A stretch of 38,519 bases of DNA from a virus (taxonomy: Duplodnaviria > Caudoviricetes). The notes under the pieces are model-generated. The model saw nothing but the letters and a program-made list of their open reading frames with translations. It did no database searches and was not told the DNA's origin. The translations under genes were made by a program, and so were the position numbers. The stretch covers positions 1-38,519 of the IMG/VR virus record IMGVR_UViG_3300028588_000050; one strand, given 5' to 3'. Each line of letters opens with the position of its first letter. Within the stretch, counting starts at the first letter, position 1. Shown here in pieces: positions 8,140 through 37,595 of this stretch.

Positions 8140-8592
8140 GTGAAGCTGGGCTGTATGACTAAATACGAAGCCAACAGGGCTTGGAAGTTAAAGAACCCAG
8201 AGAAGAATCGTGAGTCCGCCCGTCAGACGGGCATCAAGTCGCGCAAGGCTGACCCATCAATATCGCGTAACGCAAGCTACAGGTGGCGCGAGGCTAATAG
8301 GGAAAAGTCTCTGCTTAGCAAAAGGCTAAGCGAACAAAAGCGTAGAGCCCGCCGTCTCCAGACGGAGGATGGCTCCGTTTTACCGGAAGCTATTGATAAG
8401 CTGAAGGTGGCGCAGAAAAACACCTGCTGGTGGTGCACCAAGACACTCACTGACTACCACATAGATCACAGAATTCCGCTCTCTATGGGCGGCGCACATG
8501 CCATCTCCAATCTGGTTTTGGCGTGCCCTCCGTGCAATCTGCGGAGGGGAGCTTCCTTGCCATGGCAAGGCGAACACCCACGGCTCTTATGA
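8140..8592 (+). CDS. HNH endonuclease (start may be ATG 8155)
   Basis: CWWC...HIDHRIPLSMGGAHAISNLVLACPPCN; basic N-terminal arm; possible own promoter TTGCAG-17-TAATTT near 8079. Confidence 0.9.
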   Translation: MKLGCMTKYEANRAWKLKNPEKNRESARQTGIKSRKADPSISRNASYRWREANREKSLLSKRLSEQKRRARRLQTEDGSVLPEAIDKLKVAQKNTCWWCTKTLTDYHIDHRIPLSMGGAHAISNLVLACPPCNLRRGASLPWQGEHPRLL

Positions 8593-25612: not shown

Positions 25613-27471
25613 TGCACCATTTCTTCGAAGCCATCACGAACACGGCAGGCGATAGCCTAATCGGGTATTTTGGCCGTGTCATCAATCGCACGACGCAAAA
25701 CACTGTCACGCTGTCGTCGGATGAAAACGGCACGCCGATTGTTGTCGTCTCTGGCGTCGAGAACATGGCCAAAACCGATGAAAATGGTAATCTTAGCTTA
25801 TATGTAGAACCCGGCACCTATCACCTCGATATCTACGCACCGAACACCACGTCGCGATTGTATCAGGTTCGCGACGTTGCGATGAATTCGACGAAGGGGG
25901 ATCCGGGGCCTCCGGGTGAGCAGGGTGAAACCGGCGCAGATGGTGAAGGTTTAGCGGAGGTCATGGCGCCTACGGGTGCGGCCTTGGTTGGCGCTAGACA
26001 GTCCTCATTGGAGCCAGCCGATCAGAAGCAGGCAGATATCAACGCGGAAACCGTGTCTGTCATGCGGTATATTCCCATTGCCGAACGTGCTGCAATTCGC
26101 GCAGGCACTTCGACCTACGATTGCACGGCGGCGTTCAATCTAGCTACCAGTGCGGCGACTGCGCCATACGTCAGCAACAACAACGCCATTTTTCGAAACG
26201 TCATTATCCCGAACGGGCGGTATGTCATCAATGGCACTGTCTACGTTCGACGGGCACAGTCTCTTATCGGTCAGTCATATTCCGGCGTTGTTATCGACCT
26301 TCAGGGTAACCCTGGTACGGCTTTCAAGCTTGGTCAGGCCGCTGGGGGTGTGGATCTTGGCGGATACGGTGTCACCGTCCAGAACATTCTCACCTACGGC
26401 GGTGCTGCAAGTTTTCCTGTGTTCGATGCATCCTCCCCTGATAGCTGGAAGATCATCAGTTGCATGATTACCGAAGCAGGCATTGGTATTCGCGCGGGCG
26501 GCACGGATGGCAAGATCGTTGACTGCATCATTGACGGCGGTTTGACGGGGATCGATTTTATCGCGACCTCCCCATTCAAGTGCCACGGCATCATCTGCAC
26601 GCTCAACAAGTTCTTTAATCCAGTAAACGCAATCCGTGTTCGTGATGGTGCGGCTGATTTGTTGATTACCGGAAATCTTATTCAGTTTGCGGAGGTGTCG
26701 TCGCTGGAGGTTGCAGGAAACAACATTCGCAACATTCAGTTTACGAATAATCTTGTCGTGGCCAATGGCCAGTTTGAAAGCCATCTAGGCGGTGTTTTCC
26801 TTAACAATTGCCCCGCCGCAGACCTTATCGTTTCCGAAAATAACTTCCGCAACCTCAAGGGTCTGGCGCTCTCTTACGGCGGCGGCTTGGGCATTAAACT
26901 TGCCTTTACCGGGAACAAGGTGGACGGAAACCGCAGCGAGGGCGTTTACGATCAGTCGACGACTGCTGGTGGTCTTGAGGTTTCCAACATGGACGCCGTG
27001 GTTTCCGGCAACGTGTTCCGCAACCTTCGCGGGCCTACCGTGTTCTGCGCACCTTCTACGGCTACCAATGTGCGACTTATCGGCAATACCTTTGCGGGCA
27101 ATACCGGCGGGTCCACTGAGGTCCAGCTCATAGGTTCTAACGGCTCGACAACCGTTACCGTGGATCCGAGCAATTATTCCGATCGGGCAATCATTCCGGC
27201 GCAGTCTGGGATCGCCGTGCAAGCCCGCAACGTAGCGCGTGGTCGGGCAACTCTGGTGGGTGGACAGGTTGTTATTGCTGAACCGCTTACCCGCACTTCT
27301 AGTCGGGTTCTGGTCCAGAGATACGCTGATGGCGGAACGGTCGCGGCATCCTACAGCGTCAGTCGCAACGCTGGCACCGGGTTCACTATCCAGGCGAAAG
27401 ATGGCGCTGGTGCAAATCAGGCGTTGGACACTTCGACGGTAGACTGGAGCATGGATTTAATTGGCTTGTGA
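25609..27471 (+). CDS. Tailspike with right-handed beta-helix (pectate lyase-like depolymerase)
   Basis: N-terminal attachment domain, short GXY, DCTAAFN.A...IPNGRY start of beta-helix, repeated I.GN.F turns. Confidence 0.88.
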   Translation: MMHHFFEAITNTAGDSLIGYFGRVINRTTQNTVTLSSDENGTPIVVVSGVENMAKTDENGNLSLYVEPGTYHLDIYAPNTTSRLYQVRDVAMNSTKGDPGPPGEQGETGADGEGLAEVMAPTGAALVGARQSSLEPADQKQADINAETVSVMRYIPIAERAAIRAGTSTYDCTAAFNLATSAATAPYVSNNNAIFRNVIIPNGRYVINGTVYVRRAQSLIGQSYSGVVIDLQGNPGTAFKLGQAAGGVDLGGYGVTVQNILTYGGAASFPVFDASSPDSWKIISCMITEAGIGIRAGGTDGKIVDCIIDGGLTGIDFIATSPFKCHGIICTLNKFFNPVNAIRVRDGAADLLITGNLIQFAEVSSLEVAGNNIRNIQFTNNLVVANGQFESHLGGVFLNNCPAADLIVSENNFRNLKGLALSYGGGLGIKLAFTGNKVDGNRSEGVYDQSTTAGGLEVSNMDAVVSGNVFRNLRGPTVFCAPSTATNVRLIGNTFAGNTGGSTEVQLIGSNGSTTVTVDPSNYSDRAIIPAQSGIAVQARNVARGRATLVGGQVVIAEPLTRTSSRVLVQRYADGGTVAASYSVSRNAGTGFTIQAKDGAGANQALDTSTVDWSMDLIGL

Positions 27472-27509
27472 TGCTAATGTTCGCTAGTTCATAAACGGAG
27501 TACACTACC

Positions 27510-27620
27510 ATGGCCGACAAACCGAATAAGCCGAAACCGGCGCCCAAGCCGAAGCCGTCGCCAGCGCGGACCCAGCGCAGCGGGAACAATGGACCGCCGC
27601 CACCAGTGCCGGGTAACTGA
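27510..27620 (+). CDS. 36-aa Pro/Lys-rich peptide (MADKPNKPKPAPKPKPSPARTQRSGNNGPPPPVPGN)
   Basis: Hand-translated; GGAG RBS; fills gap between tailspike and membrane protein gene. Confidence 0.7.
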   Translation: MADKPNKPKPAPKPKPSPARTQRSGNNGPPPPVPGN

Positions 27621-27624
27621 CTTT

Positions 27625-28089
27625 ATGTGGCCGTTCTTTGCCTCTTTAATCGCTCTGGTCGGACTTTCCGCGATAGCACGCGATGTTCGCATAGCAGGAA
27701 CGGCTGCAATCCTGCTCGTCAATTGGGCTCTGTGCACGGCAGTAGTGCAGCAGACCGGAGACGCGTATCCGTGGACATGGTTTTTCGCCGTGGATTATCT
27801 GTCCGCGTTTATCGTTCTGGCATTCTTCGGCAAGCCAAACATATGGCAGGGCATGGTTGGCACCATTTACGCGGCCCAACTCATTTGCCATGCAGCGCGA
27901 GGGCTTTACTTAAACAGCGCAGCCGGCCTCTACTACGGTTACTATTTCCTGAAATGGGCGTCATGGGCGCAGCTCGCGGTGGTTGCCGTCTGGGGCATCT
28001 ATGAACTTGCTCATCGTAGCGGGATGTTTGCTCGCAGCCCATCATCTGTTGAGGCTGGCAATGCCCGCTTTGATCGATCGCGTTCTTAG
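27625..28089 (+). CDS. Polytopic membrane protein (about 5 TM)
   Basis: ATG 4 nt after peptide stop; successive hydrophobic helices, several with embedded polar residues (N, D, Q/H, Q). Confidence 0.8.
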   Translation: MWPFFASLIALVGLSAIARDVRIAGTAAILLVNWALCTAVVQQTGDAYPWTWFFAVDYLSAFIVLAFFGKPNIWQGMVGTIYAAQLICHAARGLYLNSAAGLYYGYYFLKWASWAQLAVVAVWGIYELAHRSGMFARSPSSVEAGNARFDRSRS

Positions 28090-28101: not shown

Positions 28102-28560
28102 ATGACTCCTGAAAATATTGTAACGGCTGCTGTGGATGCCACGGGCGCCCTCAAAACCGAAGCTGGAGGCACGATCGCAAAAGGGGTTTGGTCCCTCGTG
28201 GTAGTTGTCTCCCTAGCCGTGCTTGCGTTCCTGCCAAAGTGGCGGGTTCTTGGTATTGGTCAGCGAAAAGACGACATTGACCGGCTTATGGCCCGAGTTG
28301 AGGGTCTTGAGAACGACATCGTTAATGAGCGCAAGGATCGCGCGCAGGAAGTTTCTGTCGAGCGCACAGCGCGGGTCAAATCGCAGTTGCAGATGAGCTA
28401 CCTTGTCGCGGCCTTTGGCATGGTCAGTGCTGAACTAGAGCGACAAGACGAGGGCAACGTTGTCATTAGGCAGGCTCGTCAGATGATTGCCCGCGCGACG
28501 CATGAAGACGATCCTTTTGGCGATCTGGTTTCTAACCTTGACCACATTAAGGACGTGTAA
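28102..28560 (+). CDS. Single-TM coiled-coil protein, holin/antiholin-like
   Basis: One TM helix then coiled coil; directly upstream of endolysin. Confidence 0.65.
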   Translation: MTPENIVTAAVDATGALKTEAGGTIAKGVWSLVVVVSLAVLAFLPKWRVLGIGQRKDDIDRLMARVEGLENDIVNERKDRAQEVSVERTARVKSQLQMSYLVAAFGMVSAELERQDEGNVVIRQARQMIARATHEDDPFGDLVSNLDHIKDV

Positions 28561-28562
28561 AA

Positions 28563-29159
28563 ATGACTCGTCTGGAACTATTCGCAGCAATCCGACCCTT
28601 CGCACCAGATGGTCGGTTTTTGCCTAGCCATGTACAGGTGATTGATGCCCTTGCAGATTCATTCGGGATTCCCAGCGCCGTAGCGGATAAGCCCAAGGCA
28701 TCTGAAATTCCCGACGACTACTGGCCGATGCTGTCCAAGATTGAAAGCGCGGACCGTCCCTACGTCAAGGCTGCAACATCCAGCGGTTCAGGGCTATACC
28801 AGTTCCTGAAGGCTACATGGATAGGCGAAGGCGGGCAGTGGGGCAACGATGCCTCGCAAGCCTTCGGTGGCCTCAAGCCGTCCTATGCGGAGCAGTTGGC
28901 ACGCGCCAAGACCTTCACCGAGAAGAACGCCGCATATCTGAAGTCGAAGGGCATCCCGATCAACAAGGCATCGCTCTACGCTGCGCACTTCTTTGGCGCT
29001 GGTATGGCCGTCAAGGTGATCGGTGCCGACGTAAAAGATCGTGCGGATCTTATCGCTGGCAAGGGTCCGACCGATGCCAACCCTTCGATCCTGCGCGGTA
29101 AAACCGTGGGCGAGTTCCTGACGTGGCTTAACAAGAAAACAGGAAGTTGGGCACGATGA
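28563..29159 (+). CDS. Endolysin (lysozyme-like/transglycosylase fold)
   Basis: KIES catalytic Glu, SSGSGLYQF..ATW, LYAAHFFG, ANP motifs; in lysis cassette. Confidence 0.85.
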   Translation: MTRLELFAAIRPFAPDGRFLPSHVQVIDALADSFGIPSAVADKPKASEIPDDYWPMLSKIESADRPYVKAATSSGSGLYQFLKATWIGEGGQWGNDASQAFGGLKPSYAEQLARAKTFTEKNAAYLKSKGIPINKASLYAAHFFGAGMAVKVIGADVKDRADLIAGKGPTDANPSILRGKTVGEFLTWLNKKTGSWAR

Positions 29160-29554
29160 ACGACGAGCCGCACATCCCTTATTTCAACATGGGGCCATGG
29201 CCGATCTATGTCGGCTTCAGCGATGACCCCATCGCCTTTGCGAAGGAGATGGAACGGATGAATATGGAGGGTATCAACTTCGTAAATCCTGGCGCTAACG
29301 CGACATGCCATGCCTTTGAGAAGGATGGCTCACGAACCTGCATCATCACGCTTGCTAAATCCAAGGGTAAGTCTCGCGAGATGGTGGCGGCACTGATCGC
29401 CCATGAGGCCGTACACGTCGCGCAGGAGCTTTGGGACGGTATTGGCGAGGATAGACCTGGCCGGGAAGCAGAGGCCTATCTGGTGCAGATGATAACACAA
29501 TGCTGCCTGCAAGAGGCATGGAAGACTAATCGAGTCCGGAGGTTTGAACCATGA
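29156..29554 (+). CDS. HExxH-motif (zincin-like) hypothetical protein
   Basis: IAHEAVH...EAEAY; ATGA overlaps at both ends. Confidence 0.75.
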   Translation: MNDEPHIPYFNMGPWPIYVGFSDDPIAFAKEMERMNMEGINFVNPGANATCHAFEKDGSRTCIITLAKSKGKSREMVAALIAHEAVHVAQELWDGIGEDRPGREAEAYLVQMITQCCLQEAWKTNRVRRFEP

Positions 29555-29892
29555 CCGGCAAAACACAGCAGTTCCTAGCCTTCATCATCGTGGTATTCGC
29601 CATGCTGATTGTCTCCGTCATGCCCATGGCGGCGTCATGGCAGCTTGGCGTGTCGCTTCCCGACGGCCTGCTGGCGGTGGCTGACAAGTCGACCGCCGCA
29701 TTCGGTACGCTGCTGGGCACGATCGGCGCTTTGCTGTTTCGCCAGTCAGCCGCCGACGAAGAGGCTACCCGCAACACTGGTGAAGCCTTCAAGGCGATTA
29801 CAGCGGCGCAAAACTCCACACCCCCAGGCGCCCAGGACGTGCGAGTGGTAAATGAGTCTGACCAGCCCGTACCAACGGAGCAGCAGCCATGA
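29551..29892 (+). CDS. Putative holin (2 TM)
   Basis: Two hydrophobic helices and polar C-tail; between endolysin and spanins. Confidence 0.65.
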   Translation: MTGKTQQFLAFIIVVFAMLIVSVMPMAASWQLGVSLPDGLLAVADKSTAAFGTLLGTIGALLFRQSAADEEATRNTGEAFKAITAAQNSTPPGAQDVRVVNESDQPVPTEQQP

Positions 29893-30275
29893 TCGGCCTA
29901 ATCATCCCCCTAGTCCTCCGCGCAGGCGTGCCCCAGCGGTTCGCGCGCATAGCCGCGTGGATTGCAGCGGCTGCGATTGTCCTGCTGCTGTGCTGGGCTG
30001 CTGTGGCGATGTTTCGTGAGTGGATCGCGACGGGTAAAGAGGAAGCGGTCTCGCTTAACCAGAAAGATGTGACGATCGAAGCGGCGAACCTCGTCATCAA
30101 TGCGAGCAGCGCGGCAACCGCAAACCAGATGGAGCGCGATGACGCGTTCGCCAATGACCAGCAGGAGCTACGGTATGGGTCCGACACAAAGAGCAACACT
30201 AACAGCGTTGGCCCTGGCACCTCTGCTGTTCTCGACCGCATGCGCAAGCAACAAGCAGCCGGTCGTCGTAATTAA
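29889..30275 (+). CDS. Inner-membrane spanin (Rz-like)
   Basis: N-terminal TM then helical periplasmic domain; overlaps lipoprotein gene. Confidence 0.8.
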   Translation: MIGLIIPLVLRAGVPQRFARIAAWIAAAAIVLLLCWAAVAMFREWIATGKEEAVSLNQKDVTIEAANLVINASSAATANQMERDDAFANDQQELRYGSDTKSNTNSVGPGTSAVLDRMRKQQAAGRRN

Positions 30276-30444
30276 AGTCCCGCCCGCTGAACGCCTGACC
30301 TGTAAAGCAGAACCGGACGCACCAGCCATTGCGACCGATGCGTCCGTGTCACGATTTATTGTAGACCTTGCGGAGTCCGGGCAGTCGTGCCGGTCCGCGC
30401 TTGGCTGGATCCGCGATTGGTCAAAAGGTGTTAGCAAGCCCTAA
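30175..30444 (+). CDS. Outer-membrane spanin lipoprotein (Rz1-like)
   Basis: AGGAG RBS; lipobox-like FSTAC; PP..L.C..EP and C...L motifs; +1 frame overlap with Rz. Confidence 0.82.
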   Translation: MGPTQRATLTALALAPLLFSTACASNKQPVVVIKVPPAERLTCKAEPDAPAIATDASVSRFIVDLAESGQSCRSALGWIRDWSKGVSKP

Positions 30445-30686
30445 GATACCTCCTGCTCTCTACCCAGCAACGTCGTATTCAAAGCAAACGCAGCCTTAGC
30501 GTCCGGCTGCTCCTCCCATATCTCAGCAATCCAGCGGTCCAAGTCTCGTTTATATACGGGCATGTCGGGGGACATATCGTGGATCCGTGCCACTATGGCC
30601 TGAAATAGCCCCCGATAAGGCGCCTGAAGAGCCTCCGCGTGGTGATACGTTGGGATATGGGCGCATTGCTCGCAAGGCAGGCTCAC
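30441..30686 (-). CDS. Hypothetical protein (MSLPCEQCAH...)
   Basis: GTG at 30686 overlapping upstream TGA; GGAGG RBS; last gene of leftward operon. Confidence 0.65.
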   Translation of the reverse strand: MSLPCEQCAHIPTYHHAEALQAPYRGLFQAIVARIHDMSPDMPVYKRDLDRWIAEIWEEQPDAKAAFALNTTLLGREQEVS

Positions 30687-31099
30687 AGCTTCCTCCTCCG
30701 CATAACACCACCAATACCGCCAAACCCAAAAATCATCAGCGCCCACTTGGAGGGCTCTGGAACGGGACTGACGGTTACAGGCGTGCCGACCGGCGGTAAG
30801 GCTCCTACGCCGCCAATGTTGCCGCCCCCCACGCCAATAAACCCACCCGGCCCGCCACCGCCCGCAAAACCACCGCCTCCAGGGGCGCACTCAGCGGTTG
30901 CGATGGCTGCAATGGGGAGGTCTGTGGCCGGGATAGGCTTACGGACCTCCGCAACGTACTTACGGGCCGGTTTAGGGTGTATCCGCTCCACAACCCGGTT
31001 TATCTGCTTGTGGCTCTTATGTGTCACCACAGCCGTCGTTGGCAGTGCCGCCGCGATGCACAGGTATTTTATGCCCTTGTAGGTTAGGAGGGTTTTCAT
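30683..31099 (-). CDS. PEPxxWA-CTERM exosortase-sorted surface protein
   Basis: C-terminus VPEPSKWALMIFGFGGIGGVMRRRKL; N-terminal signal-like segment; Gly-rich linker; ATGA-coupled. Confidence 0.9.
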   Translation of the reverse strand: MKTLLTYKGIKYLCIAAALPTTAVVTHKSHKQINRVVERIHPKPARKYVAEVRKPIPATDLPIAAIATAECAPGGGGFAGGGGPGGFIGVGGGNIGGVGALPPVGTPVTVSPVPEPSKWALMIFGFGGIGGVMRRRKL

Positions 31100-31488
31100 G
31101 TTCGGGGTTCCTGCGACAAGAGGCGGATGGCGGCGCGACGATGAGCAGCGAAGGCTTGGACTCCTACACAGTCGCCGCGAGTAGGCTCGGTTATCATGCG
31201 CCAACCCATGCTGCCGGGCTCGTGGTCTTCCAACCGCGCGAATGCCTCCCTATCCATCTGTAAAACCCCTGCTTCATCCGCATAGGACCGCGCTGGGGGT
31301 GTGGTGCGGGTGTTCCAAGCGGCGATGGCAGCGGATGGGGGAATATAGCTGCAATGCGGGCCCACGCATTTCGAGTTCATGCAAGAGATCATCATGCCAT
31401 CATTGGACGTGCCTGATACTTCGGTGATTGGATCACCACCACAGAACGGACACGGCAGAAGCGCCATCCCTCCGACAGCCCCGCTCAT
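31096..31488 (-). CDS. Lar-family (restriction alleviation-like) zinc-finger protein
   Basis: LLPCPFCGG...C....C...AIAAWNTR signature. Confidence 0.8.
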   Translation of the reverse strand: MSGAVGGMALLPCPFCGGDPITEVSGTSNDGMMISCMNSKCVGPHCSYIPPSAAIAAWNTRTTPPARSYADEAGVLQMDREAFARLEDHEPGSMGWRMITEPTRGDCVGVQAFAAHRRAAIRLLSQEPRT

Positions 31489-37028: not shown

Positions 37029-37595
37029 TTGACCGGAATACATGACGAAGAAGAGATTTGGAAGACGGCGGTGGGTTTCCCTCATTACGCTGTTTCCAAC
37101 CTGGGTCGCGTGAAGCGCGTTAAACCAGACGCATACGGTAGGACGCTGGCTGTTATCCTGAAGCCGGTGGCGCGTCCGGACGGTTACATCGCTTACAGCA
37201 TGCACAACGAGGGCGTGCAGAAAGTCCGGCTCGGCCATCGCTTAGTGTGTGAAGCATTCCACGGCCCACAGCCCAAGGGCAAGCCGCACGCCTGCCACAA
37301 CGATGGCGACAAGGCAAATAACAAGGCGGACAATGTTCGATGGGATAGCCCAGTTGGCAACAACAATGACAAAATCGAACACGGAACTCTTGCTAAGGGC
37401 GATAAGCATTCCGCCGTTTATGACGGTAGTTACCTACCAAGAGGTTCTGGCCATAAGATGGCAAAGCTAGATGAGAATGATGTTATTGCTATTCGCGCTG
37501 ACACCCGAAGCACTGGTCAAATTGGTATAGCCTATGGTGTCAGCCAGTCTTTAATATCCATGATTAAGACTCGTAAAATTTGGAAGCACATTTAA
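37029..37595 (+). CDS. NUMOD4-HNH homing endonuclease
   Basis: EIWK...GF..YAVSNLGRVK (NUMOD4), HRLVCEAF.G, H.DGDK.NN...N..W, C-terminal HTH ending WKHI. Confidence 0.92.
   Translation: MTGIHDEEEIWKTAVGFPHYAVSNLGRVKRVKPDAYGRTLAVILKPVARPDGYIAYSMHNEGVQKVRLGHRLVCEAFHGPQPKGKPHACHNDGDKANNKADNVRWDSPVGNNNDKIEHGTLAKGDKHSAVYDGSYLPRGSGHKMAKLDENDVIAIRADTRSTGQIGIAYGVSQSLISMIKTRKIWKHI

Follow-up and report, generated by a model that had tools for sequence, protein, structure and literature searches.

In the agr systems, AgrB is a membrane peptidase with conserved catalytic Cys and His residues, and AgrD carries a conserved ring-forming Cys (or Ser) and has its C-terminal tail removed. Arbitrium and other RRNPP propeptides have an N-terminal export signal and work with an adjacent cytoplasmic TPR receptor in a lysis-lysogeny switch. 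In phage T4 lysis inhibition, T is the holin and RI the antiholin, and the cue in the T-even phages is superinfection. Arbitrium has been described in Gram positive Bacillales, and phage-phage peptide messaging for temperate phages of Gram positive hosts (PMC13389391). Here we examine a locus of the virus record IMGVR_UViG_3300028588_000050 (Duplodnaviria; Caudoviricetes), whose complete 38,519-base sequence is the window of this analysis. On its plus strand, a gene for a 36-amino acid (aa) peptide (27510-27620) is followed, 4 nucleotides (nt) after its stop, by a gene for a 154-aa membrane protein with five predicted helices (27625-28089); the pair is flanked by a tailspike-like gene (620 aa) on one side and by the lysis genes on the other. 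We found that the peptide and the membrane protein are a real two-gene module, and the membrane protein, judged from its sequence, represents an unnamed family. The conserved C-terminal core of the peptide probably engages the membrane protein physically, as a ligand, substrate or inhibitor. For the specific mechanism that we favor, in which the core is freed by lysis, is read by the membrane protein of neighboring infected cells and tunes their lysis timing, we estimate a probability of about one in three.

The peptide ORF translates as MADKPNKPKPAPKPKPSPARTQRSGNNGPPPPVPGN, a 23-aa Pro/Lys leader followed by a 13-aa core, with neither a hydrophobic export signal nor Cys. A GGAG ribosome-binding site (27497..27500, plus strand) lies 9 nt ahead of the ATG. 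The peptide, its ribosome-binding site and, 4 nt further on, the 154-aa ORF were all confirmed where a preliminary description of this DNA had placed them, and in run X1, which may be the source sample, one contig spanned the stretch with 0 differences. The conserved core runs from S24 to the C-terminus (27579..27617, plus strand), and its first eight residues are identical in five loci that use different codons. The window peptide is hydrophilic throughout (Kyte-Doolittle maximum over 11 aa, -1.09). None of the small-phage peptides has a hydrophobic signal stretch, no peptide examined has a signal-peptide-like or conserved-Cys feature, and Cys is absent altogether from 13 of the 16 peptides tabulated.

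Pairing in homologs of the membrane protein had been set beforehand as the refuting test, and it was found almost throughout. Seventeen loci were collected through the membrane gene (the window, L001-L006, L009, L030, VSN-002, phiCbK, BL57, BL10, BL9, SC, C2 and RW), leaving out duplicates (L007, L008, L011, L012), a locus with no upstream DNA (L010) and a false match, L016 (Myxococcus), the sole locus from the scan of cellular genomes, which proved to be a short non-gene frame. Sixteen of the 17 carry an upstream short ORF with the core, and the 17th, VSN-002 (L017 3774-3860), has an unannotated 28-aa Pro/Thr-rich ORF whose stop overlaps the membrane-gene start. At 15 loci the short ORF ends in [S/T]-[G/V]-x-x-x-[P/K] plus a Pro-rich tail and lies 2-10 nt ahead of the membrane gene. 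In L030 the cored ORF is 634 nt upstream, with an opposite-strand HNH endonuclease gene in between; since both genes of the pair are intact although apart, action in trans is suggested. Over all 19 loci examined, a cored ORF was present at 18, and for 17 of these the spacing to the membrane gene is -4 to 10 nt. A cored short ORF lay within -10..+15 nt upstream of 10/12 family ORFs and 2/418 control ORFs, a comparison that is generous to our reading because the motif was defined from the positives; the controls initially gave 8/424, and six of these eight, being the same peptides read via overlapping frames, were removed.

Searches that started from the peptide led back to the same membrane family. 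A scan of viral contigs for DSGxxxPPPP (42 of 64 parts covered; flank of at most 300 nt at 40 of the 120 loci) gave 120 matches, six with a family gene directly downstream and three of those six new (L110, L120 and L125). All five matches to R[ST]GG[ND]DKPP terminate a short ORF that is followed by a family-like gene, as judged with a broad profile that includes Caulobacter rows; two correspond to CcrSC and CcrBL9, and the new ones are L191 and a single sequence represented twice, as L194 and L195. Two other core patterns recovered known loci only (3/10 and 2/28), and a leader pattern matched 0 viral contigs. The core patterns alone are unspecific, with no downstream family gene at 114/120, 26/28 and 7/10 matches; nonetheless, the core motif leads to a family gene that is rare in that viral-contig collection (6 loci).

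The division into a leader and a distinct core, also proposed from the window sequence, was borne out by the homologs: cores are conserved, leaders are free, and the core varies with the membrane subfamily. Peptide lengths range from 36 to 86 aa, and the leaders are mutually unrelated, being Pro/Lys-rich, acidic or helical. At all four loci with a membrane identity of 61-75%, the core is 7/7 identical to that of the window, and the last 12 leader residues match the window at just 1/12. Across the 10 pairs formed by five loci, the codons of the eight core residues have 36 differing positions, all of them silent because these loci were picked for an identical core. Core identity follows membrane identity (rho 0.56, 0/5000 permutations, 16 loci), and clades have specific cores (SGNNG, SGPTS and SGGxDKP), the shortest core having 9 residues (L194). 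In run X2, one contig has the same leader DNA and then diverges, its loose end reading STQR and then SGGH in frame (30 letters translated). The residue preceding the core is D, E, R or L overall, and R, E or D among close kin, a pattern more in keeping with loose trimming than with a dedicated protease. These sequence comparisons show a core that is under selection and co-inherited with the membrane protein. In Caulobacter phage BL57 (L018, 500-790), the reading frame of the leader seems shifted compared with BL10 and phiCbK, and the core end is intact; this could reflect an error in sequencing or indicate that the leader is not needed.

Since the conserved part is the last 9-23 codons and the stop abuts the next start, the peptide might also be a cis-acting leader, in which ribosome pausing on the Gly/Pro-rich end, EF-P-sensitive or arrest-like, sets translation of the membrane and lysis genes. 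Arrest peptides likewise have C-terminal cores that tolerate varied N-termini, and Arg-to-Ala variants lose arrest (PMC12992588). However, the peptides here have no RAPP/RGPP motif, L030 keeps its peptide 634 nt away, and pausing does not account for the tie to, and co-variation with, one membrane family across unrelated phages. A PPP run is also missing in 5 of the 16 tabulated peptides and in L194. For these reasons we consider a cis-acting leader very unlikely. A need of the PPPP run for EF-P had been proposed, but since PPP is missing from several peptides, EF-P dependence is not constant across the family. A promoter had been proposed as well, and a promoter-like site with TTG-N19-GCTA spacing is indeed present (27461..27490, plus strand), one of 4 in the whole genome; its spacing agrees with the alphaproteobacterial sigma-70 consensus. 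However, a generic promoter scan did not list this site, and a strict match precedes the peptide in 1/17 loci, so the promoter is not conserved. L001, L003 and L009 have a common DNA element, GCGCGCTGGCGCT...CCAGCATG, 15-45 nt ahead of the peptide start, a possible late promoter or operator.

The five transmembrane segments attributed to the membrane protein agree with an AlphaFold2 model built on 149 aligned sequences (140 of 150 listed sequences, the query and 8 earlier matches), which has helices at 2-17, 21-44, 50-66, 73-94 and 99-131 and a mean predicted local distance difference test (pLDDT) score of 92.9. The intramembrane polar residues noted earlier were located at N33, D57, Q85/H89 and Q116, and most are well conserved in this alignment: D57 in 100%, Q116 in 98%, H89 in 97% and N33 in 90%, with Q85 in just 55%. 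Further conserved positions are L109 (89%), W34 (87%), Y82 (85%), Y105 (82%) and W50 (80%); C88 is conserved in 23%. Lys plus Arg residues number 1.9 per sequence in loop 1, 1.4 in loop 3 and 3.6 in the tail, compared to 0.1 in loop 2 and 0.6 in loop 4, and the predicted topology is N-out/C-in. With the AlphaFold2 helix limits, this topology would place D57, H89, W50 and Y105 in the outer half of the membrane.

The family comprises at least 332 clusters at 50% identity (E<=0.001; profile of 22 relatives, 1.84 billion representatives). The claim that the module is undescribed stands in both the family libraries and the literature searched. Pfam, PHROGs and NCBIfam gave no family match for the window membrane protein or peptide, and no family in PHROGs, Pfam, NCBIfam or PADLOC was matched by more than one of the 149 members, none of which matched a holin or antiholin family (PHROGs, Pfam). 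No paper on this pair was found in the literature searched, although most subscription journals were outside its reach and absence is not proven. The best matches of a PDB sequence search were just E 3 and 6, Foldseek against the PDB returned nothing at E<=0.001, and fold comparison by VIA placed the best match (Z 10.4, root-mean-square deviation 3.4, 113 aligned) among generic helical bundles. The ESM Atlas held unnamed, mostly viral clusters and no named match. Among predicted viral structures, the model matched one protein from an uncultured phage (E 1.1e-4) and one of 166 aa from phiCbK (template modeling score 0.71, E 0.04). The family profile independently selected phiCbK gp289, likewise 166 aa (E 0.005 within the phiCbK genome), and matches CcrBL9 at E 1.6e-7. 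This Caulobacter-type branch is distant, and its homology rests on the fold, the Asp/His pattern and the common peptide. In CcrColossus and in Edwardsiella phage PEi21 the profile matched nothing at E<=1, and plasmid searches gave no family match. Similar-looking hypothetical proteins with five transmembrane segments may exist in sphingomonad and caulobacter chromosomes. Two Staphylococcus records (weak, E 2) and inovirus SMA7 (a match within the Zot gene, with no profile match) were rejected.

The sharp onset of conservation at S/T-G behind free leaders, together with an invariant Asp and a near-invariant His, would also suit a precursor with a dedicated processor and exporter, as in AgrB/AgrD. 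The Asp/His/Gln core of the membrane protein would then cut before Ser/Thr-Gly and release the peptide core from intact cells to a receptor elsewhere, in host or phage. The tight gene spacing fits such a pair, a peptide with no signal peptide would need a dedicated export route, and phage-borne AgrB/D/C provides a precedent (PMC3901668). However, there is no conserved Cys in the peptides or in the membrane protein (C88), the residue preceding the core differs among close kin, L110 has its His replaced, and the scan of window ORFs turned up neither a kinase nor a receptor gene, so we regard a processor as unlikely. A low probability likewise attaches to an intracellular pair resembling an antitoxin or antiholin, in which an ion-leaking membrane protein serves as lysis trigger or exclusion factor and is kept shut by the unprocessed cytoplasmic peptide until this is degraded. 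The peptide-first order and tight spacing, the polar residues along the helices and the position ahead of holin-like genes are all compatible with this arrangement, which makes export and uptake unnecessary. However, the positions with the strongest conservation are predicted to be in the outer half, away from a cytoplasmic peptide, the genes are uncoupled in L030, and the PADLOC result above also speaks against it. Complex prediction for membrane protein residues 1-135 with the peptide (score 0.01, mark 0.32) is, by the tool's terms, no evidence either way. Lasso peptides have Asp or Glu at core positions 7-9 and come with maturation genes; the window core lacks Asp/Glu at these positions and no maturation genes were among the ORFs scanned, and a lasso peptide was rejected.

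The genes around the pair point to lysis at most loci. An endolysin follows one to four genes after it in the window, L001-L006, L155 and VSN-002, and the pair is constant while the endolysin swaps among at least five families: GH108 (L001, L006), phage lysozyme (L002, L004, L005), GH19 (L155), M15 peptidase (VSN-002) and transglycosylase-like (window). By eye, the L003 endolysin resembles that of L001, and L194 has a GH19-like gene. In L030 and L191, holin-like genes with one transmembrane segment come next, and no endolysin was identified in the flanking DNA covered; in RW, a small gene for a coil plus a transmembrane segment comes next, with an M15 peptidase about 2.2 kb further. The pair is thus a mobile unit, found in the lysis operon at most loci and elsewhere at others. 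The tail/lysis junction could instead be a site of accessory-gene gain, and the pair a host-takeover, superinfection-exclusion or anti-defense module unrelated to lysis. In phiCbK-like and Bertelyvirus phages the lysis genes are not near the pair, and the L030 junction has also gained the HNH gene and a PAS-only gene. We nevertheless hold this to be quite unlikely, as the pair is constant at the cassette head across those endolysin families and Caulobacter-type cores occur at a cassette head too (L191, L194). A second small multi-transmembrane gene, whose product of about 90-95 aa matches no Pfam family above cut-off, lies between the five-helix and holin-like genes at three loci (L004 3402-3689, L005 3456-3731 and L155) and is a candidate output partner. 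The apparent lysis region of L030 (3447-4505) has two small genes with one transmembrane segment each and then the stand-alone PAS-domain gene (PF00989, E 1e-13).

According to the mechanism that we favor, the peptide would be held in the cytoplasm until the cell bursts, because it has no export signal. The free leader would be removed by proteases of the host, and the core, shielded by its prolines, would persist, enter the periplasm of neighboring infected cells and bind a polar pocket in the outward half of the membrane protein (P49/W50, D57, H89 and Y105, with N33, Q85 and Q116 deeper). The bound membrane protein would then act on a holin or on membrane potential. Most simply, this would postpone lysis in cells whose neighbors have just been burst by kin phages. 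Self-triggering would be prevented by the membrane, which would separate the peptide made in a cell from the receptor of that cell. We favor release of the core at lysis because it jointly explains the missing export signal, the failure to find a separate receptor, the loose residue preceding the core and the conserved polar pocket in the predicted outer half. If this ligand reading is true, viruses could adjust when the host bursts. A broader claim is more doubtful, namely that this is a new form of phage-to-phage communication, a third kind, in which virulent phages of Gram negative Alphaproteobacteria release a kin-specific, proline-armored peptide at burst, five-helix receptors in neighbors reset lysis timing, and the clade cores serve as private dialects.

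Several observations weigh against release of the core as a lysis signal. Shared descent predicts the co-variation of core and membrane protein equally well, as clades are visible, and the upstream peptide of VSN-002 has DKP but no Ser/Thr-Gly core. The Caulobacter-type members are weakly linked by sequence (E 0.005 for phiCbK; hhalign probability 5% for one member), and His, Asn and Gln are each lost in certain members. The membrane protein has no signaling domain and no downstream partner was identified; the direction of the effect on lysis, delay or trigger, is a guess. A released peptide of 9-13 residues would also have to pass the outer membrane of the next cell. Finally, the placement of the pair at the head of the lysis cassette, proposed for the window, holds at most loci but not in the Caulobacter jumbo phage phiCbK, where gp288/gp289 lie about 109 kb from the lysis genes gp104-107; in CcrBL9, only hypothetical genes, and no lysis gene, are annotated in the 9 kb around the pair.

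In the window, the pair is followed by further lysis genes on the plus strand. The next gene (28102-28560) encodes a protein with one transmembrane segment and a cytoplasmic tail, with close relatives after the membrane gene in L001-L003; the earlier label of holin-like agrees with its position and single segment, but no family match was found. The downstream endolysin call is likely correct, given its position and a transglycosylase match (28563-29159; phrog_4067, E 8.3e-12; Pfam match below cut-off). Then come a soluble protein with no transmembrane segment (29147-29554; phrog_882, E 9.5e-12), a second holin candidate with N-terminal hydrophobic segment(s) and no family match (29551..29892), a likely inner-membrane spanin recognized by position and one transmembrane segment (29889..30275), and an overlapping Rz-like/LysC spanin (30100..30444; phrog_456, E 1.5e-8; PF23793 below cut-off). 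The soluble protein, whose gene sits between the endolysin and the spanins, has an HExxH-like motif and weak peptidase-type Pfam matches below cut-off, and could be a metallopeptidase. Facing the cassette end on the minus strand is a gene for a PEPxxWA-CTERM protein with a Gly/Pro-rich linker (30683-31204; NF035944 over cut-off; PF07589), a host exosortase substrate on a phage. Terminase, portal, scaffold, head, tail and ejection genes are present in the genome, and a scan of 53 further window ORFs against PHROGs showed no integrase, no repressor and no separate receptor. By appearance, the 38.5-kb phage looks like a virulent podovirus. Its host is likely a sphingomonad, because Sphingomonas is the named origin of one membrane-protein relative and another occurs in a Sphingopyxis phage. 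Two genes for homing endonucleases of the HNH/endonuclease VII type lie at 8140-8592 and 37029-37595.

The phages of alphaproteobacterial hosts that carry the pair range from small podoviruses through mid-sized to jumbo phages, and in most of them it heads the lysis genes. As the classic phage phiCbK carries it, the module is directly testable, and a core of 9-16 residues would be synthesizable. Whatever the mechanism, the analysis adds an unnamed membrane family with a partner ORF that annotation can miss, as in VSN-002. By its defining features, the module falls outside the agr systems, arbitrium, the RAPP arrest peptides and the known holin families. It resembles AgrD/AgrB in pairing a short gene for a precursor with one for a small polytopic membrane protein, and phage-borne agr3 of phiCDHM1 in being carried by a phage (PMC3901668). 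However, none of the 149 members matched AgrB (Pfam, NCBIfam), no AgrC-type histidine kinase was found among the window ORFs scanned, there is no conserved thiolactone Cys, and the hosts are Gram negative. The core is C-terminal and Pro-rich, and conservation reaches the C-terminal Pro tract, unlike the removed tail of agr; given the conserved Ser/Thr in the core, a Ser-based agr-like chemistry may apply. With Arbitrium AimP/AimR, the module shares a phage peptide whose C-terminal part varies by phage group together with its partner (PMC13389391). In contrast, the peptide here has no signal peptide, its partner is a membrane protein rather than a cytoplasmic DNA-binding receptor, and the window phage shows no integrase or repressor match. 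An upstream ORF with a variable N-terminus and a Pro-containing C-terminal core resembles the RAPP/RGPP arrest peptides ApdP, ApdA, ApcA and SecM (PMC12992588). However, the cores here have no Arg before (A/G)PP, PPP is not constant, and the pair survives separation and is tied to one membrane family. As in T4 lysis inhibition, a virulent phage could postpone lysis when a cue on the periplasmic side signals phage nearby, but here the cue would be a dedicated peptide, and no T4 family is matched by either gene.

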